From IMG/VR virus record IMGVR_UViG_3300021376_000030, positions 20,920 to 84,919 of that record: a stretch of 64,000 nt of DNA, one strand, 5' to 3'. This DNA comes from a virus. Shown one piece after another: positions 4,283 through 62,318 of the stretch (position 1 is the first letter of the stretch; every line of letters starts with the position of its first letter). The notes beneath the pieces were generated by a model. It saw only the letters and a program-made list of their open reading frames with translations. It searched no databases and was not told the DNA's origin. The position numbers and the translations under genes were made by a program.

Positions 4283-4289
4283 ATTTTAT

Positions 4290-7368: not shown

Positions 7369-7387
7369 AGCATTACCTTTCTGAGGG

Positions 7388-10422: not shown

Positions 10423-10431
10423 ATAGTTTAT

Positions 10432-11877: not shown

Positions 11878-11922
11878 AGGTATATTATTTAGTTTTGTAC
11901 CGACTAAAATGAGTAATAGATA

Positions 11923-12117: not shown

Positions 12118-12134
12118 ATCTTATATATATACTT

Positions 12135-12491
12135 TTAATTTGTTATTTCAATATATGAAAATCTTTTACTTGATGATGCTAGCGTATATCCTGCATCATT
12201 AGCAAAAATTATATCTAAATGTTGAGGATGATAATAAGCGGGAAGAGTAAACTGTAAGGTGTTATTTGTCCATGCAGTATAATCCGAAATAGGGTAAGCG
12301 CTAAAGGGTGGGTTATTAGCACTCACACTTTTAACCCCACTATATAAATTATAATATTGTTCTGTACCATCAAATTTATTAGAGCTTAAAAACAACCCAA
12401 CATTAGTTTTGTAATTAAACATATTACCTTGAAGAGTAATAATTTTGCCAGATACGCCTGTTTTAACGGTAAATGTAGGAAATGTCTTCAT
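12135..12491 (-). CDS. hypothetical protein (Ig/IPT-like)
   Basis: IITLQG..F and LQFTLP..DIIFANDAGY patterns; coupled to gp15. Confidence 0.55.
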   Translation of the reverse strand: MKTFPTFTVKTGVSGKIITLQGNMFNYKTNVGLFLSSNKFDGTEQYYNLYSGVKSVSANNPPFSAYPISDYTAWTNNTLQFTLPAYYHPQHLDIIFANDAGYTLASSSKRFSYIEITN

Positions 12492-13318: not shown

Positions 13319-13321
13319 ATA

Positions 13322-13352
13322 CTTTACCTCTCTTATATTTAAGAGGTTAAAG
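13322..13352 (-). promoter_or_regulatory. SD-sequestering hairpin with late promoter in the loop
   Basis: Minus strand CTTT(A)ACCTCT-taaatataag-AGAGGTAAAG; TAAATA at 13341-13336. Confidence 0.65.
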
Positions 13353-13356
13353 GGGC

Positions 13357-13560
13357 TTAATTATAGTATTTCCACTTGTTTGCAGATAACTTTACAGATA
13401 GCTTTCTCTTAACGGAAGGCTTCATAAAAGATCTACGGATTCTAACTTCTTCTAATATACCGCATCTCTTAACTGCATTTGTAAATTGTTTAAGTTTTTT
13501 ATCAAAATATAGTTTATTTGAACATTTATTTTTATCTAATTTTACTTCACAATTTATCAT
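13357..13560 (-). CDS. rpsU: ribosomal protein bS21 (phage-encoded)
   Basis: FDKKLKQF..AVKRCGILEEVR.RRSFMKPSVKRK matches the bS21 pattern; TAAATA 5 nt upstream of ATG. Confidence 0.82.
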   Translation of the reverse strand: MINCEVKLDKNKCSNKLYFDKKLKQFTNAVKRCGILEEVRIRRSFMKPSVKRKLSVKLSANKWKYYN

Positions 13561-13564
13561 TTGT

Positions 13565-13921
13565 TTATTTATCCTGAATTGTTACTTCTTCCATAATAGA
13601 AATTTCTGCAATAGTGTTAAAAAATTTGTTTGGTTTTTTAGAAATTAAATTTTTAGCTGAATCTTCTATGTGTCTTAAGTTATGGCTTAACTTGTCTATG
13701 GTATAGTCTAAAATAATTCTTTTATCTACAACATTATATCCATAAGGGTAAGGTATTTCAAAGATTTTTTTCGTATGATGAATGCCTAGAGTAAAAACAA
13801 GATAAAAGTCCTTTATACAAAAAAGTATCAATTTACCACTCTTGACCGTCTTACCATTAACAATAAAATTAACTTTTTGTTGAAGGAAGTTACTGATAGA
13901 TCTCTCTAATTTTGATGTCAT
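13565..13921 (-). CDS. hypothetical protein
   Basis: 118 aa ORF in a coupled operon. Confidence 0.7.
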   Translation of the reverse strand: MTSKLERSISNFLQQKVNFIVNGKTVKSGKLILFCIKDFYLVFTLGIHHTKKIFEIPYPYGYNVVDKRIILDYTIDKLSHNLRHIEDSAKNLISKKPNKFFNTIAEISIMEEVTIQDK

Positions 13922-13922
13922 A

Positions 13923-14300
13923 TTATGTATCCATGTAAGATATTTTTTGTGATGGTGTTAAGCCAACTAAATTTTCTTTGAAGTATTTCCAGAATGCTTC
14001 ACCTGCAGGTATAGATGTTATAAGATCACAACTATCACAGCCAACTGCTCGATAATCTTGCATAAAAATATCCCATACAATAACAAGATTTTTTTGTGTG
14101 GGGTTATATTTTAAAGGTCCTTTTGCTGGTCTATAATTTAATGTCATTCTCCCATCAACACTATTCAACAAAGATTGAGCATTAGTACAAAGCATTCTCC
14201 GGGTATTAGGCTTGCCCGGTTTAAGTCTGCGCCGGGCAAACTTTATTTCACAAACATTATTTTGTAGCACGGACCTTAAGCTTGTTAGTGATACTAACAT
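13923..14300 (-). CDS. SH3/WYL-like (DUF2693-like) phage protein
   Basis: LQNNVCEIKF.RR...RRMLCT...VWDI...YR pattern. Confidence 0.55.
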   Translation of the reverse strand: MLVSLTSLRSVLQNNVCEIKFARRRLKPGKPNTRRMLCTNAQSLLNSVDGRMTLNYRPAKGPLKYNPTQKNLVIVWDIFMQDYRAVGCDSCDLITSIPAGEAFWKYFKENLVGLTPSQKISYMDT

Positions 14301-14706
14301 CTTTTTCCCTCGGCTTAACTACACCGAATATTCGTTGTTCATTTAAAAAAATACCTGCGCGCAATGTCCCGTAATTAACTACATCAATATTTGCTATTGG
14401 CACCCCCATATTGTTAGGGAAGCAAACATGGTCTCCAACCTTGACCAATCTACAGTTAATACCTGTTAATATTACCTTACCAATACGCCATGCATTCGTA
14501 TCAGCATTTACAGGTACTAGAATACCGTTTCTAACTATTGTATTTGAACTGCCGCCATCATCAACAAATTCAACTAAAATTACATCATCTAAAAGATTTA
14601 CAAGATCATATCCCATAAACATACTATTAAATATATTTTTAGGCATTCCTCCTAAATCAATTAAACTTTTCTGTACAGGTAGTTGATCTACATTTGGTTT
14701 GCTCAT
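14257..14706 (-). CDS. groES: GroES-like co-chaperonin
   Basis: LLDDVILVE...NGILVP...GKVILTG...VKVGDHVCFP...FLNEQRIFG. Confidence 0.75.
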   Translation of the reverse strand: MSKPNVDQLPVQKSLIDLGGMPKNIFNSMFMGYDLVNLLDDVILVEFVDDGGSSNTIVRNGILVPVNADTNAWRIGKVILTGINCRLVKVGDHVCFPNNMGVPIANIDVVNYGTLRAGIFLNEQRIFGVVKPREKDVSITNKLKVRATK

Positions 14707-37789: not shown

Positions 37790-38236
37790 ATGGAAAAGCT
37801 TTTCTTGTCGTGGAGCGATATTTATAACTCCTTAAACTGCATTGTTAATGAAACAAGTAATTATAGTAATAATGCTGCTATTGTAGGGTTGTCTCGTGGA
37901 GGGTTGGTACCAGCAGTAATCTTTTCACATTTAAAAAATATTAACACTTTTTATACTTGCGGAATAAAAAGTTACAATGAAACTAATAAAAGCACAGAAG
38001 TTATGTTTCAGTATCCAGATAAAAAGATTCTAAGCGATAAAGATGTTGTATATGTTATAGATGATATATGTGATTCAGGCGGTACCTTAAAATTTATGGA
38101 AAATTATTTGTTGCCTTTAAAGATGGTTTCTATTACTCTTGTATATAGAACAAATGAAGTCTACAAACCAAATTATTTTGGCACTCAGCTTTCGGACAAC
38201 AGGTGGGTTGTTTTTCCGTGGGAAGAGACTAAATAA
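37790..38236 (+). CDS. type I phosphoribosyltransferase (xanthine/guanine PRT-like)
   Basis: IVGLSRGGLVPA, VIDDICDSGGT and WVVFPWE. Confidence 0.9.
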   Translation: MEKLFLSWSDIYNSLNCIVNETSNYSNNAAIVGLSRGGLVPAVIFSHLKNINTFYTCGIKSYNETNKSTEVMFQYPDKKILSDKDVVYVIDDICDSGGTLKFMENYLLPLKMVSITLVYRTNEVYKPNYFGTQLSDNRWVVFPWEETK

Positions 38237-45891: not shown

Positions 45892-47145
45892 ATGATTCCT
45901 ATTCTAGATTCAAAACGTTTGATCTCCAATCATTTATATCCAACATTATTTGGTTTTTCAACTAAAAATAAGCTAGCTAGCCAGCTTTTAAATTATGTCT
46001 ATGGTATAGTAATGTTAGTGGCGACAGCTTTTGCTTATCATGCGTTAGGATTAATATTACCAGATTGGAATAAGTTATTTGTTTTACTTGCAAGTCTTTC
46101 AGTAGTAGGTCTACCCTATTGTATAAAAATAGTTTTATTTGGTAATGAGAGGTTTGAGTTGAAACATGCATTGCTTTGTTTAGGAATAAGTATATTGCCA
46201 GCGATTTTTGATTTTGTAGGTTTTTATAGTGAAACTAGCATAAGACAAGCATTAATATCAACTAAATTTGAGCTAGTTGAAAAAGTAAACTATTTCAATA
46301 CAGCTGCAAGAAGTAAGATAGAAGAAGACAAAGTAGATCTGCAAAAAGAAAAAGAAAAGGCAACCACTTCTACAAACAATAAATTTAATCAAGACATAAT
46401 ATCATTAGATAATGACCTTCTTAACATAAAGCAAACTGTAATAGATGAAAAAGAGGGTGTTAGAAGTAGTCAGACATCAGGAAAACCTGGTGAGGGTCCT
46501 CGCACAAGGGAAATAGAAGCAGAGGTAAGAAGGGTAAAAGCTAAAAATGATTTAGAAAGTCGCAGACTATCTGATCAAAAAGATCTCGAACTGCAAGCAT
46601 TAGATAAAACTTTTGCAATAAAAGAAGACCAATTAAATGAAGGGATTAAAGAAATAGAAAAACTTGTTTCCTCTGATGCAAAGACTAAAGGTATTTTATA
46701 TCAGATTAATAATATAGATAATTTTAATGATTTAGCTAAAACAACTATACAGGTAAATAATAGTATTTCTACTATTAGCTCTAAAATGGGTATAGAGCCA
46801 CAGTTTATATCTTTTAAGACAGACGATGTTATAGAGCTATCGTTTGGAGCATTGTTTAGAGGGGAAACAACTGCACTAATATGCTTTTTACTAGCTTTTT
46901 TATTAGAAATGGTTGATACAATTATAGTGTATATGATTAGAGGTACTCGCAAAGTAGAGGCAGAAGTTGAAGAAGAAAAAAAAACTAAACTTTTTCATAA
47001 GACTTATACAAATGTACCTGAGGAAAAAAAGCGTACAAATAAAAATACTGCTGACGATTTAGCTAATATTGAAACATCAGCAGGGTCTGAATCAAAAATT
47101 ACTACTTCCGCTAAATATTTTTATTTAGATCCTCCTGAGCAATAA
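45892..47145 (+). CDS. membrane coiled-coil protein (DUF4407-like)
   Basis: Three N-terminal TM helices, coiled coil with E..G..SGKPGEGP, C-terminal TM. Confidence 0.7.
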   Translation: MIPILDSKRLISNHLYPTLFGFSTKNKLASQLLNYVYGIVMLVATAFAYHALGLILPDWNKLFVLLASLSVVGLPYCIKIVLFGNERFELKHALLCLGISILPAIFDFVGFYSETSIRQALISTKFELVEKVNYFNTAARSKIEEDKVDLQKEKEKATTSTNNKFNQDIISLDNDLLNIKQTVIDEKEGVRSSQTSGKPGEGPRTREIEAEVRRVKAKNDLESRRLSDQKDLELQALDKTFAIKEDQLNEGIKEIEKLVSSDAKTKGILYQINNIDNFNDLAKTTIQVNNSISTISSKMGIEPQFISFKTDDVIELSFGALFRGETTALICFLLAFLLEMVDTIIVYMIRGTRKVEAEVEEEKKTKLFHKTYTNVPEEKKRTNKNTADDLANIETSAGSESKITTSAKYFYLDPPEQ

Positions 47146-49749: not shown

Positions 49750-50822
49750 GCTACTCCATAGTTAGGTGAGCTATTAGCTGCATATTTATAAGGCGATTTC
49801 GGAGGATATACCTTTACTGTAATATAATCTTTATTTTTATTGGCAAAGATTAACGCATCATTTTTGTTAAAGAAGAATACATCTATTACGGGAGCAGTTC
49901 CGCCGCTGGCCGTTCTTGCCTTAACAGCGCCTCCAGTATCCGTAGCATAACGGGTGCCAATATCAGGAAATACAACCCTGCTTAAATACGGAATAAATGC
50001 AGGGTCAACAGCTACGCTTATACCTTCTTCTAATCGTCTACCGGTTGAACTTCTTAATGCTGCTGAATCATAATCGGTTCCAGGACCGTACGCCCAGTAT
50101 ACGGTTCGTCTAACATATACGTCATAACCTTCTTCATTTGATCCGCTGAATTGAGGAGAGCTTATTTGTTGTAAATTGTTTTGAGATGATTTACTAAATG
50201 TAGGACTATTAACACTATTAGCAGTCATTTGATAAGAAGCATTATAAGTATTAGTCTGAGCATCAGAAACAGTTTTTAATATTTTATTTTCAAAAAAGGT
50301 TGAATCATTTAAATCTCTAATTGCCTTAGGCGATAACTTTGCGTTTTGTTGAAATGCGGATTCAACTGCATTATTAATAGTACCATATTGATATGACTTG
50401 GTATTGATGTTAAATAAATTTATTACTTGTGAAGATGTTATTTTTGAAAACTGTTGGGAAATGGTTGCTAGAGTATTAATGGTATTATCAAACCCTATTT
50501 GCGTTACCACACCTTGAGGATTTACAACGGTCTTGCCCGCTACAGAATTAAAAAGCGCTGTGGCATTACGATCAATAGAAGATTTTATACCTGCAATACC
50601 TTCACGCAAAGCATTATCTACCAATGTTGGGTTTGGTAAAAACTCTAAACCATCTGGTTTAACTTGTATTATATTTTGTGGTAGTAAGCTGGAAGATGCT
50701 TCGCTAAAGCCATCAAAACTTGGTATATTTAACATTGAATTTAATAAAGGAGCGCTGCTGGCAGCGGTTTTAGCCTGAAGGTTCGCTGCCAAATTTGTTA
50801 ATTCGGAAATATTGTAATACAC
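49746..50822 (-). CDS. virion protein with C-terminal 3D (MltA-like) lytic domain
   Basis: TVYW, VAVDP.FIPY, ATDTGGAVK and VIDVFF; ATGA-coupled to gp5. Confidence 0.8.
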   Translation of the reverse strand: MYYNISELTNLAANLQAKTAASSAPLLNSMLNIPSFDGFSEASSSLLPQNIIQVKPDGLEFLPNPTLVDNALREGIAGIKSSIDRNATALFNSVAGKTVVNPQGVVTQIGFDNTINTLATISQQFSKITSSQVINLFNINTKSYQYGTINNAVESAFQQNAKLSPKAIRDLNDSTFFENKILKTVSDAQTNTYNASYQMTANSVNSPTFSKSSQNNLQQISSPQFSGSNEEGYDVYVRRTVYWAYGPGTDYDSAALRSSTGRRLEEGISVAVDPAFIPYLSRVVFPDIGTRYATDTGGAVKARTASGGTAPVIDVFFFNKNDALIFANKNKDYITVKVYPPKSPYKYAANSSPNYGVA

Positions 50823-50967
50823 ATATTATTTAAATTGATAATACTGTTTTTACATGTATTATTATGGTGTGAATACATTTTTAGTAAACGTAGATTTCAT
50901 AAAAAGCGGAAATATTAGTTATTAAAAGAATCGGTCAACAAAGAGTTTAGAGTATGTTTTGGCCTAT

Positions 50968-50995
50968 TTGATTTTAATGTTACATCTTTTATAAT
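50968..50995 (+). promoter_or_regulatory. sigma70-like promoter of the deazaguanine operon
   Basis: TTGATT-N16-TATAAT, 5 nt before ATG 51001. Confidence 0.55.
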
Positions 50996-51000
50996 ATTTT

Positions 51001-51831
51001 ATGATAATGAAAGTATCTCACGAAATTCCCATCTCTCTACTTGAAGAGTCAAAAAATTTTAATGATTTTGATTACTGCCTGGTACATTTATTGTATCAAA
51101 ATGCCGGTTCACCAGAACAGTTAGATTATTATACATATTATAAGTTTGCCAGATCTTTATATAATAGAGAGGTTTTACTAGATAATTCCATTTTTGAGCT
51201 TGGAAAGGCGTTTGATCCAGAAAAATTTTATGATTCGATAATTTCCTTACAGCCTAATATGTTTATTGTACCAGATGTATTAGAAGATTCACAAGCAACA
51301 ATGGTAAGCTTTAAGGGTTTTAGGGAAAATATAAAATCTATTAAAAATGAATTTACTACTAGATCTATAGGAGCTGTTCAAGGTAAGACCTGGCAGGATT
51401 TAAAAACATGTTATAAGTTTCTAAGCTATGAGGCAGATATGATTGCTATTAGCTTTGATTTTAGTTACTACCATATTATTGGTGAGGGCAAAACACCATT
51501 GGAGCGCTTTTGCTCAGGGCGCCAGCGGTTTATTACAGATTTAATAAATAATGGTGTATGGGATTGGAACAAACCCCATCATTTGCTTGGGTGCTCGCTA
51601 GCAAAGGAGTTTAGATATTATATCGATAACAACATTCACAACATTGTTTCTTGTGATACTAGTAATCCAATTGTTGCTGCAATTCATGGATTAAAATATG
51701 ATGCTGATTACGGGCTGCAAACCAAGCCATCAACTAAGCTAGCTGATTTAATAACACATCAATTCACTCAAGATCAACTCGAACTAGTAAAATACAATAC
51801 TAGTATGTTTAAAAAAATCATTCGTAGATGA
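51001..51831 (+). CDS. TGT-fold protein, DpdA3-like 7-deazaguanine insertion enzyme
   Basis: LLDNSIFELG, IVPDV, GAVQG, HHLLG and SCDTS.P motifs of the TGT barrel; in an operon with queF. Confidence 0.7.
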   Translation: MIMKVSHEIPISLLEESKNFNDFDYCLVHLLYQNAGSPEQLDYYTYYKFARSLYNREVLLDNSIFELGKAFDPEKFYDSIISLQPNMFIVPDVLEDSQATMVSFKGFRENIKSIKNEFTTRSIGAVQGKTWQDLKTCYKFLSYEADMIAISFDFSYYHIIGEGKTPLERFCSGRQRFITDLINNGVWDWNKPHHLLGCSLAKEFRYYIDNNIHNIVSCDTSNPIVAAIHGLKYDADYGLQTKPSTKLADLITHQFTQDQLELVKYNTSMFKKIIRR

Positions 51832-52400
51832 GACCCTGGATTGCTTTTTTTAGTCAAACTGGAACAGAGATTCACAATCTTTCTAATGCACTAGGCATAT
51901 ATCCAGATTGCATTGTAACCAACAAGCAAGATCATACCACAACAAATGAATGCTTAATCAAAACTACAGAGTTTAGACAACATAAACTTAATTTACCTAA
52001 CCTGTGGTGCCAGCTACCCAAGACTCCTACAGTAAAAGAATACAACGATGTGTTAGGGCTTTTTAATAACCCAGTCATTACACTGCATGGTTATTTGAGA
52101 ATCATTCCAAAAGAAATCTGTGAAAAGTATGAAATATACAATTTACATCCAGGTTTAATAGACAAATATCCTGAACTGAAAGGGTTTAATCCACAGGAAA
52201 AAGCATTTGCAGAGGGGTATAGACTTGCCGGGTGCGTTATTCATAGAGTAGTACCAGATGTGGACGAAGGTGAAATACTAATGAGTCAGGGCACATGCAT
52301 AGAGGGGTTAGATTTACCAGGTGTATACGATAAATTGCATAGCGTGGCATTTGATTTGTGGAAAAGCTTTTTTGCTGCATATAAAATGTTAGAAGAATAA
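51828..52400 (+). CDS. PurN-like formyltransferase (DpdN-like preQ1 formyltransferase candidate)
   Basis: FFSQTG, LHGYLRIIP, YNLHPG and GCVIHRV...VDEGEI. Confidence 0.85.
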   Translation: MRPWIAFFSQTGTEIHNLSNALGIYPDCIVTNKQDHTTTNECLIKTTEFRQHKLNLPNLWCQLPKTPTVKEYNDVLGLFNNPVITLHGYLRIIPKEICEKYEIYNLHPGLIDKYPELKGFNPQEKAFAEGYRLAGCVIHRVVPDVDEGEILMSQGTCIEGLDLPGVYDKLHSVAFDLWKSFFAAYKMLEE

Positions 52401-52401
52401 A

Positions 52402-53355
52402 ATGGATATTTCTCTACACTACGAGAATGTGTTTCTCAAACCTAATCATAATTCTGTTAAATCGAGAGCAGAAATAGATACAGATATAAATTTTCTCGGC
52501 AAAGTTTTTAGATTGCCCATTATACCAGCTAATATGAAATGTTGTGTTGATCAAGATACATGTGAAATGTTAGATAAAAACAATTACTTCTATATAATGC
52601 ACAGGTTTGATGAAGATATTTTAAATTTTGTTAGATATGCAAATGGACAGAATTTTAATACAGTTTCAATCAGTGTGGGTATACAACAAAAAGATAAAAA
52701 TTTAATTGATGCATTGGCAAATAGCTTAATGCGAGTTGATTATATTACCATAGATGTGGCACATGGTCACCATACCAAAGTATCAGACCAAATTAAACAT
52801 ATTAAAAACACTATTCCAAATGTAAAGGTTATTGCTGGTAATGTTGCGACACTTAGAGGTGTAGAATATCTTCGTGATGCAGGCGCAGATGCAGTTAAGG
52901 TCGGTATAGGTGGTGGATATGCTTGTACAACTAAAGACAAGACTGGGTTTACGTATCCAATGTTTAGCTGTGTAATGGAATGTGCCGCAGACATACCAGT
53001 TATTGCGGATGGTGGGATCCGGTGCAATGGAGATATAGCAAAAGCGCTAGTGGCTGGAGCAAGCATGGTTATGTGCGGTTCAATATTTGCAGCTTGTTCT
53101 GATAGCCCTGCTCCAGTTGTTAAAGACTCTAATGGTAGGAGGTTTAAGCAATATTATGGTTCAGCGAGTATTCATAACAAACTTGATAAAAAGAATATAG
53201 AGGGTACAATGAAGCTTATGGAAACTGATTCTTTTACCTATAGAGAGAAATTATTAGAAATAGCTCAGGATTTGCAGAGTGCTATCAGCTACGCAGGTGG
53301 CTATAATCTCAAGTCGTTAAACTTATTTAACGTAAAATACGGGGTAAAATTATGA
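52402..53355 (+). CDS. guaC: GMP reductase
   Basis: PIIPANM, YIMHRF, ITIDVAHGH, KVGIGGGYACTTKDKTGF, IADGGIR and QSAISYAGG (Bacillus-type GuaC). Confidence 0.92.
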   Translation: MDISLHYENVFLKPNHNSVKSRAEIDTDINFLGKVFRLPIIPANMKCCVDQDTCEMLDKNNYFYIMHRFDEDILNFVRYANGQNFNTVSISVGIQQKDKNLIDALANSLMRVDYITIDVAHGHHTKVSDQIKHIKNTIPNVKVIAGNVATLRGVEYLRDAGADAVKVGIGGGYACTTKDKTGFTYPMFSCVMECAADIPVIADGGIRCNGDIAKALVAGASMVMCGSIFAACSDSPAPVVKDSNGRRFKQYYGSASIHNKLDKKNIEGTMKLMETDSFTYREKLLEIAQDLQSAISYAGGYNLKSLNLFNVKYGVKL

Positions 53356-53708
53356 GCCCGGTTAATAGCGATGAAGTTGTAAAGGTTGTTGAAAGTACAT
53401 ATCCAGAAACCTGCGAGGAGTTTAAAAAGATTCAGCAAGAACAATATGAGGTGTTTTGCAAGAAGCAGTTTGATTACGGGCCACATAACATTTCATTAGG
53501 ATCTGATTTACATAAAAAGGAAGATATTACTGCTTCTATCTCTGCTATTGTAGTACGACTAAATGATAAAATTCAAAGATTAATTAATTTAGTTTTGCGT
53601 AAAAAAACCTTTGAATCCGCAAACGAACCTATATTTGACGCATTTAGTGACACGTCTGTTTATTGTATTATTGCAGAAATTGTCAAGCGTAAGAAATGGT
53701 GTAAATAA
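53352..53708 (+). CDS. nucleotide-modification-associated domain protein (DUF1599/Nmad1-like)
   Basis: KQFDYG, RLNDKIQRL and E...DAFSD.SVY.II. Confidence 0.75.
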   Translation: MSPVNSDEVVKVVESTYPETCEEFKKIQQEQYEVFCKKQFDYGPHNISLGSDLHKKEDITASISAIVVRLNDKIQRLINLVLRKKTFESANEPIFDAFSDTSVYCIIAEIVKRKKWCK

Positions 53709-53839
53709 TGTCGGCAGTAAATATTTTTAAAAATAAGCATAATGAATTGCGCAAGCTAAAAAAAGAAAACAGAATACTTAAAGCTGAAATTATTTTCTTG
53801 AAGAAGTTGTTATATGGTATAAAATTAGGTAAAGAATGA
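53708..53839 (+). CDS. small basic protein (43 aa)
   Basis: Coupled by TAATG and ATGA overlaps to both neighbours. Confidence 0.5.
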   Translation: MSAVNIFKNKHNELRKLKKENRILKAEIIFLKKLLYGIKLGKE

Positions 53840-54420
53840 ACATTACTTTTACTGGTCCGCAGTGTTCAGGTAAGACTACATTGCTTAAGCAAATGAGGCA
53901 AACTAGAGGCATTATGGATCAATTTTTTTATATAGATGAAGTTACTAGACTAGTTAAAAGAGAGTTTAATGTAGGTATTAATGAAGAAGGTGCAAATGAT
54001 GTAACACAATTGTTAATCATAAATAAGGAACTAGAAAATTTATTTAAATACAATTATGAGATGTGGCCTGGATATAGAGGAGCGGTGCATGATAGGTGTT
54101 TATTAGATGGTTTGGTCTTTACAGAATATTTTTACGAAAAGAAATTAGTTAGTCTGCAAATTTGGTCTCAGGCTTTGAGTTATTGGAATAGGTTTCATAG
54201 TAAATATGATATTATTTTTTATCCTGATCCGCATGAAATTAAATTAGAAGATGATGGTGAGAGAAGTAATAATGCTGAGTTTAGAAATGCTATTATAGAA
54301 AAATATGAAACGTACTATCTAAATCAATTTCAGTGGAAAGACAGAATAGTAAGATTAAAAGGTACAGTACAAGAGAGATTAGATAAAATTAAGAGTATTC
54401 TTGATTTTTATACAAAATAA
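53836..54420 (+). CDS. P-loop nucleotide kinase (NadR/AAA_28, dNMP kinase-like)
   Basis: GPQCSGKTT, HDRCLLD and DDGER. Confidence 0.82.
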   Translation: MNITFTGPQCSGKTTLLKQMRQTRGIMDQFFYIDEVTRLVKREFNVGINEEGANDVTQLLIINKELENLFKYNYEMWPGYRGAVHDRCLLDGLVFTEYFYEKKLVSLQIWSQALSYWNRFHSKYDIIFYPDPHEIKLEDDGERSNNAEFRNAIIEKYETYYLNQFQWKDRIVRLKGTVQERLDKIKSILDFYTK

Positions 54421-54434
54421 TATATAATATACTA

Positions 54435-55352
54435 ATGAGTAATACAGTTTTAGATAATAGCAATATTTCCAAACATTTAGGTAGAATTACTGGCTACAAG
54501 TCAACATATGATCCTTCACTTCTAGTACGTGAGCCAAGAATTAATAACCGTAAACATTTGAACATTAATGATGATGATGCACCTTTTAGTGGCTTTGATA
54601 TTTGGAATGCGTATGAGGTATCATGCCTTACGAACGAGGGCATGCCAATTGCTGCCATTGCTAAGATTGTATATCCTTGCAAAAACCATTATATTGTAGA
54701 GAGTAAATCAATTAAGCTATACATGAATTCCTTTAACATGCAAGTATTCAAGGGAAATATTATTCAGATTCTTAATGAGTTGCAAAGCACTATTGCGCGT
54801 GACCTATCCACATTGTTAGAAACCGATGTCAAGGTTTGTGTTCGTCTAGCTAAGGATGTTAGTGATGATGTTTTCTATCAACCAGTATTTTGCAATAAAG
54901 ATTATCCTACTTTAGAAAATGGTATAGATGTTACGTATATTAAACCAATATCGTATACTGAAAATCCAGATATTCTTAGTGGTATAGAAGCATTAGAGCC
55001 TAAAGTTCAAAGATTCCATTCTGCTCTTCTTAAGTCAAACTGCAGAGTCACTTCCCAACCAGATTGGGGTGATGTTTATATTCACTATAAGGGGAAATAC
55101 GAAATTAATCCTACCTCGTTGCTTCAGTATATTGTTTCTTTTAGAGACGAATGTCATTTTCATGAAGAGATTTGTGAGACCATTTATATGAGACTATTTA
55201 ATAAGTTTAATCCAGAAGAGTTAGTTGTAAGTTGTCTATATGTTAGACGCGGTGGTATAGATATTAATCCGACGAGAGCGAGTAGATACGATCTACTAGA
55301 CAAGGCTCTTATTGACGAGTTTAAGTACTTTACAAAAACCGCAAGACAGTAA
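54435..55352 (+). CDS. queF: NADPH-dependent 7-cyano-7-deazaguanine reductase (two-domain type)
   Basis: DIWNAYEVS, IVESKSIKLYMNSFN, LLKSNCRVTSQPDWG, FHEEICE and RRGGIDINP. Confidence 0.95.
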   Translation: MSNTVLDNSNISKHLGRITGYKSTYDPSLLVREPRINNRKHLNINDDDAPFSGFDIWNAYEVSCLTNEGMPIAAIAKIVYPCKNHYIVESKSIKLYMNSFNMQVFKGNIIQILNELQSTIARDLSTLLETDVKVCVRLAKDVSDDVFYQPVFCNKDYPTLENGIDVTYIKPISYTENPDILSGIEALEPKVQRFHSALLKSNCRVTSQPDWGDVYIHYKGKYEINPTSLLQYIVSFRDECHFHEEICETIYMRLFNKFNPEELVVSCLYVRRGGIDINPTRASRYDLLDKALIDEFKYFTKTARQ

Positions 55353-55353
55353 G

Positions 55354-55719
55354 TTATTTTAACTTAAGCAGATAGTTCGTGTGGTTTATAACACCTAGAA
55401 TTTCATCCCTTATATTCAATAAATCAGAATCAGTTTGTGGGTTTAGCTTATTGGTTATTTCTTGAAGATAACTTCTGTATGTGTCTAATATTGTTGTCAG
55501 ATCAATTTCTTTTATATCAAATAGCTTTATATCCAGACTCCCATTACTAAAATCAGCATCATTTCTTCCGAGAGCCGTCTCAACAAAATTGTCAATTAAA
55601 CCGTCCAAGGCTTTATATGCCTTACCAAACGCTTTATGAGCAGCATAACTTTTTGTCTGCCAATGAAGTACGCGAAACTGGTTCTGCATTTGAAGCAAAT
55701 CTTGAATAGCTGCATGCAT
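55354..55719 (-). CDS. ferritin/Dps-like protein (DUF5856-like)
   Basis: HWQTKSYAAHKAFG..Y..L..LID.FVE...LLNIRDEI...YLL; TATAAATA 5 nt upstream. Confidence 0.8.
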   Translation of the reverse strand: MHAAIQDLLQMQNQFRVLHWQTKSYAAHKAFGKAYKALDGLIDNFVETALGRNDADFSNGSLDIKLFDIKEIDLTTILDTYRSYLQEITNKLNPQTDSDLLNIRDEILGVINHTNYLLKLK

Positions 55720-55783
55720 GTAAATATTTATATATTACTACACTATAATACCTAGATCCTATATTATATTCGTTAAATAACAT

Positions 55784-58474
55784 GTGAGCTTACAGACAGT
55801 TACATTTAATGACAGAATTTCGTTCGCGTTACTTGTAGATAGTAAAAAAGAAAATGTTATCTATTGCAAATCAGTTACCGAACATTTTTTTAACGTAGGG
55901 CTTTTTAGCACAGATAATAGTGATTTACTTTTAGAGTATTATGAAGAAAATGGTGAAAAATTTACTAAAGTAAATGTACAGTTAGGAGATACTCTTTATA
56001 AAGAAGTGGAATTTAAAATCGTTGTTTCTGATAGCAATATTAGTTCTACATTTAATCCATCTTATACTAAACCTATAAAAAATAAAATATTACCTAAAAT
56101 TGTAGAGGAAAAATTACCAGTAGAGGTTTTAGAGAGAGAGATAATTGAAGAGCCAGCTCCTCTGCCACCAATAGAATATCCCAAGGTATACAGACCACTT
56201 AAAGTAGGTGAACTATATGATGTAGCGATAAACAGCTCTGTTCCCATGACATTAATGGAGAGCGATGAAGTAGAAAATATCTTTTTTTGTAGCTCATTCG
56301 AAGATAAACTTTTTAATGTAGGTATTTTTAAAACCGCTGATGCAGAACTTATAAGCGAGTATTCAGTTGAGCAAAACGACAAATATATCTATGTTGATCT
56401 ACTATTTGAAAATGGTGATCTATATCACAAGATACAATTTAAAATTATTGTAGTTGAAAATGAAGATACTCCTATATCAATGTTTAATTTAAAAACCTTA
56501 GATAATGAAACAAAAACATATGTAAAATTTACAGGTACCCCATACATTCCGGCAGACATTACAGAAGAGGAAAAGACTGTAGATTCAATAATAACAGAAG
56601 ATACAGAATTAATAGAAAAAAAACAACAATACGCTAAGGCAATACAAAAGGCGCGGTTATTAGAAACACAATTAAAAGAGCAACAAAAAATATTATACCA
56701 AAAACAAGAAGAACTTCAAAAGCAGTCAGTTGTTATAGAAGCTGCAACCGAAGTAGAAAAATTAATATGGGAAAATATACAGTTAAAGCTAGAAACATTC
56801 AAAAGAGACTTTTCTACAGAGTTCAAAAAGAATTCTAAAAAGAGTTTAGATGAATACATAGTAGAGAAGCTTAAGCAAGATTTTGAAAAGACTACCGAAA
56901 TAGATGAAAAAATTGCTCAATTAGTCGAGCAAGCAGAAAATACTAATAAAATCAGAGATGGTATAAAAAAATATGTAGATAAAGCAGTTGAAGTGGCGTT
57001 AAGAGAGGCAAAAAAATTTGCAGCAAGCATAGGTGGTGGTGGCGGGTCAGTAGCTGTTCAATATGCTAACGGCGGCACAATGAACGGTGATTTAACAGTC
57101 AACGGAGAGTTACAAGTAAACGGGTCATTTAATATATGTGGAGATTTATTACCTTGCACCACAGATATATATAGTTTAGGTTCTCCAACAAAACGATGGA
57201 AAGATTTATATGTGAGCGACAGCTCTATTTATCTAGGTAATGTTACACTGTCAGCTGTTGGTAATACGCTTATTATACCAGAAGATACTCTTTTTATAGG
57301 CAATGCTGTACAAGACGGTGATTTGAATGTCACAACAAGCATTTTATCTGCAGGGGTAGATCTACTAGATGTGTTTGGCTCTAACACCTATATTCAATAT
57401 CTTTCTTGGGCACCATTAACATATGATTTATCTATAACTGGTGGCAATACTGTTTCACTTTTATCTATTAAAAATGATTATCAAGCCTATACACAAAATT
57501 ATACAAAAACTAATTTTCTTCCTTTAACTGGGGGAGTCATTACCGGTAATCTATCAGTAAACAACAATTTGACAGTATTCGGCAATTTGACCGCGTTAGG
57601 AGATGCTTATTTTGTTAATACGGTATTTTCCACTACAAGTGCTCTTTCAGTTATTAATATTGGTCAAGGCCCTGCACTGTACGTATACCAAGCAGCGGGA
57701 CCCCACCCTGTAGCATCATTTGTAGACGGGGATGGTATTGAGGTATTACATGTTGGAAATGCACAACCTGGCAGTGGCGGTAAAATTGGTATTAATACAA
57801 GTAATCCAATAACAGAACTAACAGTAAGTGGGTCTATAAGTGCAAACGGCTCGATAACAGTTGCCAATGGAAATAGCAATAATTGGAATTCTGTATACAC
57901 TTCGGTAGAAAATAATTCCAGCAACTGGAATAGTGTATACACCTCATCTTCTCAAAATAGTGGAAGCTGGAATAGCGTTTATACTTCATGGAATACAACG
58001 AGCAGCATTTATGTAACAACTCACTTCCTTTCAACAAATAATGTACTTTTAAGTGCGGTTACAGTAACGGATGATATTAATGTAGGTGGTACAGGTTATT
58101 TTAGCCATATAGCTGCCGCAACGAAATCATTTTATATTATACATCCCGAAGATACAAACAAACACCTACAATACGGCTCACTTGAGTCACCTTATCACGG
58201 TGTTCGCCTTACAGGAAAGGCGGTCATAGGTATAGAATGTTGTATTGAACTTCCACCCTATATTAAAAGTTTAGTAAAATTAGAAGGAGTAAACGTACAA
58301 ATTACCAACATTAATCATACCCAGCAGCTATATGTGAAGAATATAGATATCGACAAAAACTGCGTGGTTATAGGCAGAAAACACAACATTTTGAATAAAA
58401 ACAAGTTATACGAATTCTTTTGGTCATTTACCGCTATTAGAAAAGATATTCCTGACCTAAAAACGGAAGTATAA
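55784..58474 (+). CDS. large structural/fibre protein
   Basis: Duplicated N-terminal domain, coiled coil, GGGGGS hinge, LGSPTKRWKDLY, TTSALSVIN..GPALYV module and C-terminal TKSF.I.HP...LQYGSLESPYHG domain. Confidence 0.8.
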   Translation: MSLQTVTFNDRISFALLVDSKKENVIYCKSVTEHFFNVGLFSTDNSDLLLEYYEENGEKFTKVNVQLGDTLYKEVEFKIVVSDSNISSTFNPSYTKPIKNKILPKIVEEKLPVEVLEREIIEEPAPLPPIEYPKVYRPLKVGELYDVAINSSVPMTLMESDEVENIFFCSSFEDKLFNVGIFKTADAELISEYSVEQNDKYIYVDLLFENGDLYHKIQFKIIVVENEDTPISMFNLKTLDNETKTYVKFTGTPYIPADITEEEKTVDSIITEDTELIEKKQQYAKAIQKARLLETQLKEQQKILYQKQEELQKQSVVIEAATEVEKLIWENIQLKLETFKRDFSTEFKKNSKKSLDEYIVEKLKQDFEKTTEIDEKIAQLVEQAENTNKIRDGIKKYVDKAVEVALREAKKFAASIGGGGGSVAVQYANGGTMNGDLTVNGELQVNGSFNICGDLLPCTTDIYSLGSPTKRWKDLYVSDSSIYLGNVTLSAVGNTLIIPEDTLFIGNAVQDGDLNVTTSILSAGVDLLDVFGSNTYIQYLSWAPLTYDLSITGGNTVSLLSIKNDYQAYTQNYTKTNFLPLTGGVITGNLSVNNNLTVFGNLTALGDAYFVNTVFSTTSALSVINIGQGPALYVYQAAGPHPVASFVDGDGIEVLHVGNAQPGSGGKIGINTSNPITELTVSGSISANGSITVANGNSNNWNSVYTSVENNSSNWNSVYTSSSQNSGSWNSVYTSWNTTSSIYVTTHFLSTNNVLLSAVTVTDDINVGGTGYFSHIAAATKSFYIIHPEDTNKHLQYGSLESPYHGVRLTGKAVIGIECCIELPPYIKSLVKLEGVNVQITNINHTQQLYVKNIDIDKNCVVIGRKHNILNKNKLYEFFWSFTAIRKDIPDLKTEV

Positions 58475-58487
58475 TCATAAATAAATA

Positions 58488-61400
58488 GTGAGTCAGAACA
58501 TACTTATAACTCCTGGCAAGGGATCTATATTTTTTGATAAAAGTGTTGCTGGTGCCTCGACAAAAACTAATACTGGGTCTGCAATAGAAATCTTATACGA
58601 TAGTAATGGGGGATTAGGATTTCATACTCCGATTTATCCAACTGCAACCGTTTTCGTTAGTGCAGGAAATGTTATAGCTACAAACTCTTTAAGTGCAAAA
58701 ATAATTTATTCTAATTATCCAGGTCTTGCACCAGATTATCCCGGTCAAAATAGTAATTACTGGGGGTCAGTTTACACAACAACTAATGCAGAATCTGCTT
58801 CCTGGGGTTCTGGTGGAAGTGCAAGCACGGTATTAGCAGCTAACAGTGCTAATTGGGATAGTACTTATTCCTCGGTAAAAACTAACTCAGCTAATTGGGA
58901 TTCAACATATACATCTTCCAAGAATAATAGTGCCAATTGGGATTCAACCTACACCTCGGCTTCACAAAATAGCGCTAATTGGGACTCTACATATACTTCA
59001 GTAACCAACAACTCAGCTAACTGGGATAGTGTATACACATCTTCCAAGAATAATAGTGCTAACTGGGATAGTGTTTATACATCTTCTAAAAATAATAGTG
59101 CCAATTGGGATAGTGTCTATACATCTTCTAAGAATAATAGTGCCAATTGGGATAGTGTATACACATCTTCCAAGAATAATAGTGCCAATTGGGATTCAAC
59201 CTACACCTCGGCTTCACAAAATAGCGCTAATTGGGACTCTACATATACTTCAGTAACCAACAACTCAGCTGATTGGGATTCAACCTACACCTCATCTTCA
59301 CAAAATAGCGCCAATTGGGATTCAACATATACATCTTCTAAGAATAATAGTGCCAATTGGGATAGTGTCTATACATCTTCTAAGAATAATAGCGCTAACT
59401 GGGATAGTGTCTATACATCTTCCAAGAATAATAGTGCCAATTGGGATAGTGTATACACATCTTCCAAGAATAATAGTGCCAATTGGGATAGTGTATACAC
59501 ATCTTCCAAGAATAATAGTGCCAATTGGGACTCTACATATACTTCAGTAACCAACAACTCAGCTAACTGGGATAGTGTCTATACATCTTCCAAAAATAAC
59601 TCAGCTAATTGGGATAGTGTTTATACATCTTCCAAGAATAATAGTGCTAATTGGGATTCAACATATACATCTTCCAAAAATAACTCAGCTAACTGGAATA
59701 GTGTATATACATCTTCCAAAAATAACTCAGCTAATTGGGACTCTGTTTATACATCTTCCATTAATAACTCAGCTAATTGGGACTCTGTTTATACATCTTC
59801 CATTAATAACTCAGCTAATTGGGATTCAACATATACATCTTCCAAGAATAATAGTGCCAATTGGGACTCTGTTTACACATCTTCTAAGAATAATAGTGCC
59901 AATTGGGACTCTGTTTACACATCCTCCAAGAATAATAGTGCCAGTTGGGATAGTGTATATACAAGCTCTTCACAGACAAGCAGTAGCTGGAATTCAGTAT
60001 ATACTCAAATGCAATATAGTAGCGCGGCATGGTTAGATGAGTTTGAGGCTAATACCTTATATTTTAAAGTTTCCGGTGGTACTATTTACGGTGATGTTAA
60101 TATTCAACACGATTTAGTGGTTGGTAATAATTTATTTGTAACAGGAAGTGCCACCTTTGCAAGCACTATTTTTACGTCTACAAGCGCTTTGTCCGTTATT
60201 AATACTGGTCAAGGGCCTGCACTATTTGTTAAGCAGGGTCCAGGCCCGGGCGATATAGCCTCTTTTTATGATGCAGATGGTATAGAAGCTCTTCATATTG
60301 GAGATGCAAAATATACGCTAGGTCAAGATCCTGATGGTGTTATCGGTATTAAAACCTCATTCCCTAACAAAACATTATCTGTTGTAGGAGAAATTAGTGC
60401 AACCGGTAGTATCTACACTACTGGTAAATTCTTATCATCAGTGCCCCCGGGCGGTGTTAATGGTTCAAGCACTGATTTATGGGATTTATTCTTCGATAAA
60501 ATAACAGGTAATGATATATATACAAATGTTTATATAAACTCTGCTTCCTGGGGTTCTGGTGGAAGTGCAAGCACGGTATTAGCAACTAATAGTGCTAATT
60601 GGGATAGTACTTATTCCTCAGTAAAAACTAACTCAGCTAATTGGGATAGTACATACACTTCAGTAAAAAATAATTCAGCTAATTGGGATAGTGTATATAC
60701 ATCTTCTAAGAATAACAGCGCCAATTGGGATTCAACATATACCTCTACCAAAAATAATAGCGCTAACTGGGATAGTGTTTATACATCTTCTAAAAATAAT
60801 AGTGCCAATTGGGACTCTACATATACTTCAGTAACCAACAACTCAGCTAACTGGGATAGTGTATATACATCTTCTAAGAATAATAGTGCCAATTGGGACT
60901 CTGTTTATACATCTTCCAAGAATAATAGTGCCAATTGGGACTCTGTTTATACATCTTCCAAGAATAACTCAGCTAACTGGAATAGTGTATATACATCTTC
61001 CAAAAATAACTCAGCTAATTGGGACTCTGTTTATACATCTTCCAAAAATAACTCAGCTAATTGGGATTCCACTTATACTAGTTCTTCTCAAAATAGTGCT
61101 AATTGGGATTCCACTTATACTAGTTCTTCTCAAAATAGTGCTAATTGGGATTCCACTTATACTAGTTCTTCTCAAAATAGTGCTAATTGGGATTCTACTT
61201 ATACTAGTTCTTCTCAAAATAGTGCTAATTGGGACTCTGTTTATACATCTTCCAAAAATAACTCAGCTAATTGGGATTCCACTTATACTAGTTCTTCTCA
61301 AAATAGTGCTAATTGGGATTCAGTATACACATCTTCCAAAAATAACTCAGCTAATTGGGATTCCACTTATACTAGTTCTTCTCAAAATAGTGCTAATTGG

Positions 61401-62318
61401 GATAGCGTATATAGTTCTAGCAAAACAAATAGTGCCAACTGGAATTCAGTATATACTAGTTCTTCACAAAATAGCGCCAACTGGAATAGTACGTATACTT
61501 CAGTAACCAATAATTCAGCTAATTGGGATAGTACGTATACTTCAGTAACCAACAACTCAGCTGATTGGGATAGTGTTTATACATCGTCTTCACAAAATAG
61601 CGCCAACTGGGATAGTGTATACACTTCAATGTACCAAAATAGCTCAGGTTGGCTAGATCAAGACGAGGCTAGTGCAATATTCTTAAAGGTATCAGGTGGT
61701 ATTATTGCAATTGATCCTGCAGACCCGAACAATGGCGACGGCGGTACACTGACTGTCAATAAAGGATTGAGCGCTGCTGTTAGCAGTGGTAACTTTGTAG
61801 TTAAACCTAACTTTAATTTAGGTAATAACTCTTTAATATTTGCTGACGGTGCTAACGAGAGGGTTGGTATTCGTACAAATACACCATATTATACCCTGCA
61901 TGTTAATGGTGATATAAGTGGTACAACTGGCTATTATAATCATATTGCAGCCGAAACCAAGTCATTCTATATTAAGCATCCATCTAAACCTGGTATGCAT
62001 TTGCAATATGGGTCTCTAGAGTCACCCTATCATGGAATTCGTTTGACTGGAAGCGGTATTATAGAAAACGATAGCGTAGTGATTGAATTACCCAATTATG
62101 TACCTCATTTAGTTAGAACAGATGATTTTAATGTACAGCTAACAGGTTATAAACATAGTAAAAAACTATGGGTTGATAGTATAAATGTATCTCAAGATCC
62201 ATATGCAAGTAATTTTGTAGTAAAAAAACACTTTACTTTATTTAAAAAACCATACAAGTTTTTCTGGTCATTTAGTGCTATAAGAAAAGATATTCCTCCG
62301 TTGCAAGTGGAGGTATAA
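58488..62318 (+). CDS. long fibre protein with NSANWDSxYTSxxN repeats
   Basis: Two arrays of 14-aa repeats; same GPALFV module and C-terminal TKSF..HP..LESPYHG domain as the upstream gene. Confidence 0.85.
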   Translation: MSQNILITPGKGSIFFDKSVAGASTKTNTGSAIEILYDSNGGLGFHTPIYPTATVFVSAGNVIATNSLSAKIIYSNYPGLAPDYPGQNSNYWGSVYTTTNAESASWGSGGSASTVLAANSANWDSTYSSVKTNSANWDSTYTSSKNNSANWDSTYTSASQNSANWDSTYTSVTNNSANWDSVYTSSKNNSANWDSVYTSSKNNSANWDSVYTSSKNNSANWDSVYTSSKNNSANWDSTYTSASQNSANWDSTYTSVTNNSADWDSTYTSSSQNSANWDSTYTSSKNNSANWDSVYTSSKNNSANWDSVYTSSKNNSANWDSVYTSSKNNSANWDSVYTSSKNNSANWDSTYTSVTNNSANWDSVYTSSKNNSANWDSVYTSSKNNSANWDSTYTSSKNNSANWNSVYTSSKNNSANWDSVYTSSINNSANWDSVYTSSINNSANWDSTYTSSKNNSANWDSVYTSSKNNSANWDSVYTSSKNNSASWDSVYTSSSQTSSSWNSVYTQMQYSSAAWLDEFEANTLYFKVSGGTIYGDVNIQHDLVVGNNLFVTGSATFASTIFTSTSALSVINTGQGPALFVKQGPGPGDIASFYDADGIEALHIGDAKYTLGQDPDGVIGIKTSFPNKTLSVVGEISATGSIYTTGKFLSSVPPGGVNGSSTDLWDLFFDKITGNDIYTNVYINSASWGSGGSASTVLATNSANWDSTYSSVKTNSANWDSTYTSVKNNSANWDSVYTSSKNNSANWDSTYTSTKNNSANWDSVYTSSKNNSANWDSTYTSVTNNSANWDSVYTSSKNNSANWDSVYTSSKNNSANWDSVYTSSKNNSANWNSVYTSSKNNSANWDSVYTSSKNNSANWDSTYTSSSQNSANWDSTYTSSSQNSANWDSTYTSSSQNSANWDSTYTSSSQNSANWDSVYTSSKNNSANWDSTYTSSSQNSANWDSVYTSSKNNSANWDSTYTSSSQNSANWDSVYSSSKTNSANWNSVYTSSSQNSANWNSTYTSVTNNSANWDSTYTSVTNNSADWDSVYTSSSQNSANWDSVYTSMYQNSSGWLDQDEASAIFLKVSGGIIAIDPADPNNGDGGTLTVNKGLSAAVSSGNFVVKPNFNLGNNSLIFADGANERVGIRTNTPYYTLHVNGDISGTTGYYNHIAAETKSFYIKHPSKPGMHLQYGSLESPYHGIRLTGSGIIENDSVVIELPNYVPHLVRTDDFNVQLTGYKHSKKLWVDSINVSQDPYASNFVVKKHFTLFKKPYKFFWSFSAIRKDIPPLQVEV
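58842..60005 (+). repeat. 42-nt coding tandem repeat, array 1 (~28 units)
   Basis: Unit approximately AATAGTGCCAATTGGGATAGTGTATACACATCTTCCAAGAAT. Confidence 0.95.
60588..61640 (+). repeat. 42-nt coding tandem repeat, array 2 (~25 units)
   Basis: Same unit; preceded by a near-exact copy of the segment that precedes array 1. Confidence 0.95.

Follow-up and report, generated by a model that had tools for sequence, protein, structure and literature searches.

Systems that introduce 7-deazaguanines into DNA differ widely in the extent of modification: bacterial DpdA and phage DpdA2 modify less than 0.1% of G and DpdA1 0.1-30%, whereas replacement by DpdA3 is complete (Cui et al., 2023, PMC10516641). 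According to the main text of that work, in which DpdA3 and DpdN were named, the DNA of the Flavobacterium phage immuto contains neither deoxyguanosine (dG) nor dPreQ1 but only 7-(formylamino)methyl-7-deazaguanine (fdPreQ1), all G being replaced, and complete replacement was also reported for the phages CP220 (by dADG) and phiST (PMC10516641). The locus considered here lies at positions 51001-55352 of a 64,000-nucleotide stretch of viral DNA, hereafter the window, which represents the last 64 kb of an 84,919-base contig (IMG/VR record IMGVR_UViG_3300021376_000030; CheckV completeness 40%). With a probability of roughly 0.8, its seven genes make up a single operon that belongs to a 7-deazaguanine DNA-modification system of the DpdA3 type, and on sequence grounds this operon is a diverged and enlarged version of the immuto fdPreQ1 cluster. 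The seven co-oriented open reading frames (ORFs) listed for this part of the window are:

51001-51831, plus strand: ORF1, predicted DpdA3-type 7-deazaguanine transglycosylase (276 aa; phrog_19058; tRNA-guanine transglycosylase (TGT) barrel in the structural model)
51828-52400, plus strand: ORF2, predicted DpdN, a PurN-like formyltransferase (190 aa; PF00551)
52402-53355, plus strand: ORF3, predicted GuaC, a GMP reductase and optional component (317 aa; PF00478)
53352-53708, plus strand: ORF4, Nmad1/DUF1599-like four-helix protein (118 aa; phrog_1485)
53708-53839, plus strand: ORF5, 43-aa ORF in a variable spacer, a doubtful component of no credible family
53836-54420, plus strand: ORF6, DpdA3-associated P-loop kinase, putatively of nucleosides or nucleotides, core partner (194 aa; AAA_28; phrog_2107)
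54435-55352, plus strand: ORF7, predicted QueF, a bimodular preQ0 reductase (305 aa; QueF_N plus QueF)

The junctions between these genes consist of 4-nt overlaps, one 1-nt overlap, one 1-nt gap and one 14-nt gap, in agreement with a preliminary description of this DNA that had spoken of a tightly coupled seven-gene series. Since dozens of independent viral contigs show the same succession of genes, the series is not a chance run of ORFs.

In immuto, DpdA3 is followed by a 50-aa ORF, DpdN, a gene annotated as 'thymidylate kinase' and QueF, while QueD, QueE, a phosphoribosyltransferase and FolE are encoded within 5 kb upstream. DpdA3, DpdN, the kinase and QueF hence occur in the same order in both phages, with identities of 42%, 47% and 45% for DpdA3, DpdN and QueF; the kinases share phrog_2107, and both phages possess a phosphoribosyltransferase of phrog_8995. 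When 17 immuto proteins were searched against the contig by tblastn, four of them (phosphoribosyltransferase, DpdA3, DpdN and QueF) found a match, whereas the kinase, FolE, QueD and QueE did not. The two phages differ in that GuaC, the Nmad1-like protein and the 43-aa ORF are inserted between DpdN and the kinase in the window, the first two being absent from immuto, and in that immuto encodes a PRA-PH/MazG-like pyrophosphohydrolase (gp208) two genes upstream of DpdA3. Moreover, the preQ0 genes of immuto are found within 5 kb, whereas those of the relatives of the window phage are 24-53 kb away. CP220 and other Firehammervirus members share a DpdA3 that is 42-44% identical, a phrog_2107 kinase directly after it and an adjoining HD-domain gene; on the other hand, DpdN and QueF are missing from the 18.7-kb CP220 locus viewed, GuaC and the Nmad1-like gene are missing from the whole record, and the end product is dADG (Cui et al., PMC10516641). 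The core of the system is thus already published, while the literature searched discusses neither GuaC nor the Nmad1-like gene nor the constancy of the kinase, and no paper in it ties GMP reductase, kinase or DUF1599 to DpdA3. The words 'kinase' and 'GMP reductase' do not occur in the main text of Cui et al. (PMC10516641).

The assignment of ORF1 to DpdA3 draws on its phage relatives and on its modelled fold. ORF1 matches phrog_19058 (5.9e-49) and no Pfam or NCBIfam model, the Pfam TGT model included. Along 91-94% of its length it shares 42-44% identity with DpdA3 in 18 of 18 matching phage records, 14 of them from Campylobacter phages and four from Flavobacterium immuto, whose gene is annotated as DpdA. 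Two DpdA3 queries run by tblastn did not detect the Cellulophaga phages phiST and phiSM, both of which Cui et al. (2023) count among the DpdA3 phages (PMC10516641). The AlphaFold model of ORF1 adopts a TGT barrel (predicted local distance difference test, pLDDT, 89.9) that is matched by Foldseek to the Z. mobilis TGT at 4.6e-9 and by VIA-align to the archaeosine TGT 1iq8 (Z 18.2, 238 residues aligned), to the bacterial DNA preQ0 insertase DpdA 7ui4 (Z 18.2, 233 aligned) and to the tRNA enzyme 3unt (Z 15.8); a profile search against solved structures detected no sequence similarity (best E 1). The TIM-barrel TGT fold is shared with bacterial DpdA as well as with phage DpdA1 and DpdA2, the DpdA3 protein being a bare barrel of 276 aa compared with the 413 aa of 7ui4. 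It is acidic in 12 of 12 relatives (isoelectric point 5.07-6.40). The bare barrel and, in a comparison confined to these relatives, the acidity may hint weakly at a small-molecule substrate. A distant DpdA3 (33% identical) is embedded in a replication module of record G006 (locus L081, G006:C1:41000-58000, positions 3940-14499), in the order family B polymerase, DpdA3, RtcB, UvsX-like RecA, QueD, DenV-like pyrimidine-dimer glycosylase and DnaB-like helicase.

ORF2, which adjoins DpdA3, scores 53.6 bits with PF00551 and only 46.8 bits with the PurN equivalog model, compared with a cut-off of 150.1, and is 46.7% identical to immuto DpdN. The top 13 solved relatives are all glycinamide ribonucleotide (GAR) transformylases (best 3.3e-17), with tRNA and sugar-nucleotide formyltransferases ranking below. 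Residues N105, H107 and D146 are invariant across 11 sequences, and an equally invariant N-terminal loop, SQTG[TS]E, aligns with the SGGGSN loop of PurN, which we take to bind the 5'-phosphate of GAR. Given that the protein is also without any extra domain, we infer from these features that the substrate of DpdN is more likely to be a small molecule of the phospho(deoxy)ribosyl type than either DNA or the free base. ORF7 exceeds the Pfam cut-offs of QueF_N (117.7 bits) and QueF (77.1 bits), scores 258.2 bits with TIGR03138, under its cut-off of 293.45, and is 45.4% identical to immuto QueF. The candidate idea that GuaC stands in for QueF was rejected, QueF being intact.

With QueF, DpdN and DpdA3 at hand, the phage DNA very probably carries fdPreQ1 in place of G, made by these three enzymes from preQ0, as the identities to the immuto proteins and their common order suggest; the same evidence bears out the earlier designation of the locus as an operon of the formyl-preQ1 type. 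In the proposed pathway, FolE, QueD, QueE and QueC, whose genes would lie outside the available contig, would make preQ0, which QueF would reduce to preQ1; the aminomethyl group would be formylated by DpdN, and DpdA3 would swap guanine for the deazapurine to yield fdPreQ1. None of QueC, FolE and QueD was found on the 84,919-base contig by Pfam model and none of FolE, QueD and QueE by tblastn with the immuto proteins, QueE having been searched in this way only. The absence of folE and queC/D/E, noted earlier for the window, thus holds for the whole contig. In record G002, which shares the architecture of the window, QueD, FolE and QueC are encoded about 24, 26 and 45 kb beyond DpdA3, and in G003 about 32-53 kb from it. 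Since only about 13 kb follow DpdA3 on the window's contig, truncation is a sufficient explanation for the missing genes. The search for these genes elsewhere in the genome, which the preliminary description had proposed, therefore failed on the contig itself but succeeded for FolE, QueD and QueC in the relatives G002 and G003. The complete 209-kb genome G001 contains QueD and QueC and no PF01227 FolE.

For comparison, 19 viral loci were fetched with DpdA3 as query and 48 with GuaC; five contigs were common to both sets, leaving 62 unique contigs, among which DpdA3 is in view in 53 and QueF is reached in 48 of these 53. The 48 complete loci comprise 34 with DpdN, GuaC and the Nmad1-like gene, eight with DpdN and the Nmad1-like gene and no GuaC, and six with DpdA3, kinase and QueF only, and the share of GuaC among them is inflated by the bait, as GuaC is found in only five of the 19 loci fetched with DpdA3. 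Unrelated insertions occur in the operon, such as a 349-aa ORF (L058, 7325-8374) and a Cys-rich 441-aa ORF (L003, 12566-13891), and the spacers on either side of the kinase, towards the Nmad1-like gene and towards queF, are hot spots for them. The 43-aa ORF was rejected as a conserved component, relatives being found by tblastn in only four of the 67 fetched loci (L005, L044, L072 and L073); in other loci, either the kinase immediately adjoins the Nmad1-like gene, as in L034, or the two are separated by an unrelated ORF.

The P-loop kinase, on the contrary, is a core partner of DpdA3 as judged from its occurrence. Wherever the locus extends as far as QueF, which is the case on 48 unique contigs, the kinase is encoded between DpdA3 and QueF (48 of 48); it is also present in immuto and CP220 and, as an unlinked copy, in G006. 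The protein scores 48.7 bits with AAA_28 (cut-off 27) and matches phrog_2107, 'thymidylate kinase', at 3e-26, as do the kinases of immuto (4.3e-25) and CP220 (1.2e-51); all 12 sequences compared share its P-loop, GxQxxGK[ST]T, and a DRC motif without exception. The kinase profile finds a copy next to DpdA3 in immuto (1.9e-30), CP220 (1.6e-36) and G001 (4.7e-83), and a homolog about 31 kb from DpdA3 in G006 (3.4e-25), whereas no such kinase was found by the same profile in G007, a phage with a GuaC homolog and no DpdA3. Among 50,697 phage records, the window kinase matches 17, all from Campylobacter phages and 14 of them beside DpdA3, in a search that was insensitive enough to miss immuto; the kinases of the window and of immuto are too diverged for tblastn at 1e-3. 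A weak match to the NadR ribosylnicotinamide kinase (E 0.078) was obtained with the profile among solved structures. The kinase had originally been regarded as an extension of the operon; this view has to be revised, since it accompanies DpdA3 everywhere looked, immuto and CP220 included.

ORF3 can be assigned to the GMP reductases with some certainty. It scores 191.7 bits with PF00478 and 341.3 bits with the GMP reductase model NF003966, 2.7 under the cut-off of 344, while the IMP dehydrogenase model TIGR01302 yields only 163 bits. Its best solved relative is 1ypf, titled GMP reductase (1.3e-75, 257.6 bits), and the next, titled IMP dehydrogenase, follows at 160.5 bits. The Cys-Thr-Thr loop GIGGGYACTTKDKTGF aligns with GIGPGKVCITKIKTGF of 1ypf, and the aligned cysteine is presumably the catalytic one, so that GuaC looks like a working, catalytically intact GMP reductase.

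ORF4 is more difficult to classify. It matches phrog_1485 at 8.6e-13 but has no Pfam match up to E 10, and no PF07659 match up to E 0.1 was found on the contig; a search of five records with the DUF1599 Pfam model returned only the ortholog in G003, below threshold (15 bits, E 0.003, cut-off 25). Because it falls short of the PF07659 threshold, the protein is termed Nmad1-like and not a family member. On the other hand, 28 of 30 named neighbour clusters in the ESM Atlas carry PF07659 (score 0.96), a domain named 'nucleotide modification associated domain 1' (bioRxiv 10.1101/2021.07.29.453957), and the four-helix model (pLDDT 86.5) finds mostly proteins named Nmad1/DUF1599 among its BFVD Foldseek matches (best 2.1e-7, TM score 0.86). 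The labels 'guaC' and 'DUF1599-like' of the preliminary description were thus right, as indicated by the GMP reductase scores and by these neighbours. The Nmad1-like family comprises 7,564 proteins at E <=0.001 among 8,000 scored, none of which is named among the 120 listed. A Foldseek search of the PDB yielded nothing at E <=0.001, its weaker rows including 2p06, 2a3q, 4qgp and 2oie; VIA-align against 48,161 chains returned generic helical hairpins at Z about 7, with no MazG-like protein among the best 50; the profile search against solved structures yielded nothing usable (best E 0.74); and a shared family with immuto gp208 was not demonstrable by hhalign (probability 0.2).

Among the complete loci, the Nmad1-like gene accompanies DpdN in 42 of 42 cases and is missing from all six loci that lack DpdN; it was not found in G001, G006, immuto or CP220. 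Such strict pairing favours a task linked to formylation over a general removal of guanine; the drain on canonical G formerly assigned to the Nmad protein does not fit it. Genes of phosphohydrolase type are encoded near DpdA3 in three lineages, namely the Nmad1-like gene here, the PRA-PH/MazG-like gp208 in immuto and an HD-kinase fusion in CP220. The latter, gp055 (L002, 7868-8899), is situated directly upstream of DpdA3 and consists of an HD phosphohydrolase fused to an AAA_33/polynucleotide-kinase-like domain, which makes it a candidate nucleotide-clearing or processing enzyme of the dADG system. The suggestion that every DpdA3 phage encodes a recognisable phosphohydrolase was dropped after searches for MazG, HD and PRA-PH in G000, G001, G002, G003 and G006 had found each in 0 of 5.

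Guanine exchange and formylation may take place before replication, at the level of free nucleosides or nucleotides that the kinase would convert towards the triphosphate, and in view of the gene set we would put this just short of an even chance. A free deoxynucleoside or deoxynucleotide would then be the substrate in which DpdA3 swaps the base, DpdN would act on a phosphoribosyl-type small molecule like its relative PurN, and the kinase would carry the product towards the triphosphate, so that the phage polymerase would write the modified base directly. GuaC would lower the GMP, and hence the dGTP, pool and send surplus or expelled guanine to IMP, whereas the Nmad1-like protein may be a nucleotide helper tied to the formyl step, clearing for instance dGTP or unformylated dPreQ1 nucleotides. 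Pushed further, this pre-replicative route would mean that DpdA3 is not a DNA-modifying enzyme at all but a base exchanger for free deoxyguanosine or its phosphates, which together with the kinase makes a 7-deaza-dGTP pool in this lineage as well as in immuto and CP220. In such a pool, which we consider a tentative proposal and somewhat less probable than not, DpdN would formylate a nucleotide as PurN does GAR, and GuaC would shut the tap on guanine nucleotides. The pre-replicative route is supported indirectly by the co-occurrence of the kinase and by the PurN-like character of DpdN. Gene identities, synteny and co-occurrence are the direct results here, whereas the functions, including every substrate and the timing relative to replication, are deduced from homology and gene neighbourhood.

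T4 and the phages with Z genomes offer a precedent in logic: the hydroxymethylcytosine (hmC) pathway of T4 employs the dCTPase gp56, the dCMP hydroxymethylase gp42 and the deoxynucleoside monophosphate (dNMP) kinase gp1, and the Z-genome set consists of MazZ, DatZ and PurZ. By analogy, a maker of a modified dNMP, a kinase and a remover of the canonical competitor would here, too, achieve complete base replacement. The likeness ends at this logic; the present system would rely on base exchange by a TGT fold and not on chemistry on the base, and the dGTPase role is a proposed one.

Several observations weigh against the pre-replicative route, its proposed accessories or the identity of the modified base. 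The fold of DpdA3 is equally near to 7ui4 and to tRNA enzymes and thus gives a nucleotide substrate no preference. The kinase profile matches solved thymidylate kinases only weakly (best E 0.013). The best solved match of the Nmad1-like protein after re-ranking is 2p06 (Z 7.4, 82 of 84 residues), which we take to be an all-alpha NTP pyrophosphatase-type protein, and the score is in the noise range of helical bundles; the activity of the Nmad1-like protein is accordingly no more than a prediction from a match to all-alpha NTP pyrophosphatase folds that stays within this noise. In the complete genome G001, which has DpdA3, kinase and QueF and lacks DpdN, no recognisable MazG, HD, PRA-PH or Nmad1-like gene is present, and therefore a dedicated dGTP-clearing enzyme is no general feature. 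GuaC is absent from the whole records of immuto and CP220 and is hence unnecessary for complete replacement of G, whereas it is present in G007, a 93% complete phage without DpdA3; since GTP is the precursor of preQ0, a strong drain on GMP moreover has its cost and could oppose the supply of the base. Most of the loci compared are closely related (DpdA3 50-75% identical to that of the window), GuaC served as bait for 48 of them, and their counts are not independent events; as unrelated insertions are tolerated in the operon, position within it is weak evidence of function. Finally, fdPreQ1 was demonstrated in one cultured phage only, and post-replicative modification is proposed throughout by Cui et al. 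(PMC10516641). A complex prediction of DpdA3 with the kinase scored 0.00, which speaks neither for nor against binding.

The published proposal is the strongest alternative, and we regard it as a serious contender that nevertheless stays below an even chance, the small probability left over going to mixed or different schemes. According to it, DpdA3 puts preQ1 or its formylated form into finished DNA, while the roles of kinase, GuaC, Nmad1-like protein and phosphoribosyltransferase are confined to base supply and purine salvage, such as recycling the guanine set free and providing FolE with GTP. The match of the DpdA3 model to the DNA preQ0 insertase 7ui4 (Z 18.2, 233 aligned) agrees with this proposal, as does the fact that base exchange in DNA frees one guanine per site and thus provides work for salvage enzymes, and that guaC is located behind nrdAB, among general nucleotide genes, in four loci. 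Insertion into finished DNA, however, leaves unexplained why a kinase should accompany DpdA3 in every one of the 48 complete loci, in both immuto and CP220 and, at an unlinked site, in G006. In addition, DpdN resembles PurN, a small-molecule enzyme, and complete base replacement is, to our knowledge, otherwise achieved via the dNTP pool, as in the case of T4 hmC and the Z-genome phages. It also has to be considered that the activity of DpdA3 could not be demonstrated in an E. coli DNA assay (Cui et al., PMC10516641).

A second alternative concerns GuaC alone, which might be a general auxiliary metabolic gene that serves purine balance in an AT-rich phage (GMP to IMP to AMP) and has no role in replacement. 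The G+C content of the window (30-41%) agrees with such a role, as do the GuaC homolog of G007, a match at the DNA level to a gene annotated as 'dehydrogenase' in Staphylococcus phage 42E, and the absence of guaC from 14 of the 19 loci fetched with DpdA3 as well as from immuto and CP220. Moreover, the position of the gene varies, and unrelated ORFs are inserted into the operon, too. Most often guaC is found between DpdN and the Nmad1-like gene; in L062, L063, L066 and L072 it stands right behind nrdA, nrdB and a small ORF, across a baseplate gene from DpdA3; and in G001 (a 344-aa homolog) and G006 it is far from DpdA3. On the contrary, 39 of the 48 loci fetched with GuaC contain DpdA3 within 6 kb, and two more (L073 and L078) contain the downstream operon genes, these loci being relatives and not independent cases; G001 and G006, likewise relatives, were searched whole, and both carry DpdA3 in spite of their unlinked guaC. 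Furthermore, guaC is translationally coupled on both sides in the window. As to the co-occurrence of guaC with dpdA3, proposed earlier as a check, most loci fetched with GuaC contain DpdA3, whereas only five of the 19 fetched with DpdA3 contain guaC, and G007 has guaC without DpdA3.

GuaC thus behaves like a nucleotide-pool gene that these related phages tend to keep near nucleotide operons. That it lowers GMP and dGTP or disposes of expelled guanine is conceivable, and we would wager slightly against it; a generic role in purine balance appears about as likely. The earlier claim that GuaC and the Nmad protein together drain canonical G cannot describe a requirement, since immuto and CP220 are without both, and judging from their distribution the two are lineage-specific, optional accessories. 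A run of nrdA, nrdB, small ORF and guaC is closed by guaC in L063 (2113-6963) and L072 (993-6951). At the corresponding site behind nrdAB, where relatives have guaC, the window encodes a 417-aa ORF (45892-47145) with a weak DUF4407 match only. The guaC-like gene of G001 (L080, 867-1901; G001:C1:21867-22901, minus strand) has a Pfam match that is split in two, pointing to an inserted segment within the barrel of the 344-aa protein.

The weakest alternative, according to which the TGT-like protein modifies tRNA with preQ1, the formyltransferase is a GAR transformylase and the DNA is unmodified, can draw on the fold matches to the tRNA enzymes 1iq8 (Z 18.2) and 3unt (Z 15.8) and on PurN as nearest solved relative of ORF2, but is highly improbable, because ORF1 lacks a Pfam TGT match and is 42-44% identical to DpdA3 of phages measured as fully modified, ORF2 reaches only 46.8 bits of the 150.1 required for the PurN equivalog and shares 47% identity with DpdN, a protein that is set apart from other phage PurN-like groups by Cui et al. 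(PMC10516641), and the annotated parts of the window contain no further purine-synthesis gene.

Apart from the operon, one more gene of the window may belong to the system as a distant accessory:

37790-38236, plus strand: small phosphoribosyltransferase, possible distant accessory (PF00156, 42.1 bits; phrog_8995)

This protein is 30% identical to immuto gp211, which is encoded between queE and folE and belongs to the same PHROG. It could salvage expelled guanine or ribosylate the deazapurine, its link to the operon being a matter of inference. Homologs are encoded about 6 kb upstream of DpdA3 in L015, L016 and L018.

Upstream, the operon is separated by a 178-nt gap from baseplate-type genes, which are transcribed divergently. 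A scan of positions 50600-55900 for promoters and terminators returned 28 promoter-like sites compared with 28.8 expected, so that two 10-of-12 promoter matches within this gap (50835-50862 and 50968-50995) prove nothing about early expression. The queF end faces a convergent gene of the DUF5856/phrog_858 'starvation-inducible regulator' type (55354-55719, minus strand), which occupies the same position in L040, L051-L053, L067 and L068 and is found about 6.7 kb upstream of DpdA3 in L003, L004 and L021. Genes for a tail-collar protein and a cell-wall hydrolase as well as nrdA and nrdB are found nearby on the window. A pair of very large ORFs that resemble tail fibres and have similar C-terminal modules follows on the plus strand (55784-58474, 896 aa; 58488-62318, 1276 aa), the second consisting mostly of dozens of tandem units of about 13 residues of the form NSANWDS[VT]YTSSK.

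In general, complete replacement of a canonical base is rare, and for 7-deazaguanines two levels of exchange compete, finished DNA and the nucleotide pool. By placing a kinase, a GMP reductase and an Nmad1-like protein beside the swapping enzyme, this operon and more than 50 related loci render the choice between the two directly testable. If the pool route is false, the locus is one more DpdA3/DpdN system of the type described in 2023. If it is true, it would provide a first function for the widespread Nmad1/DUF1599 family, a new base-exchange reaction at the level of dNMPs and an enzymatic path to 7-deaza-dGTP analogues that are useful for sequencing and synthetic biology. Should DpdA3 act on free nucleotides, this would constitute the first small-molecule substrate in the TGT superfamily.

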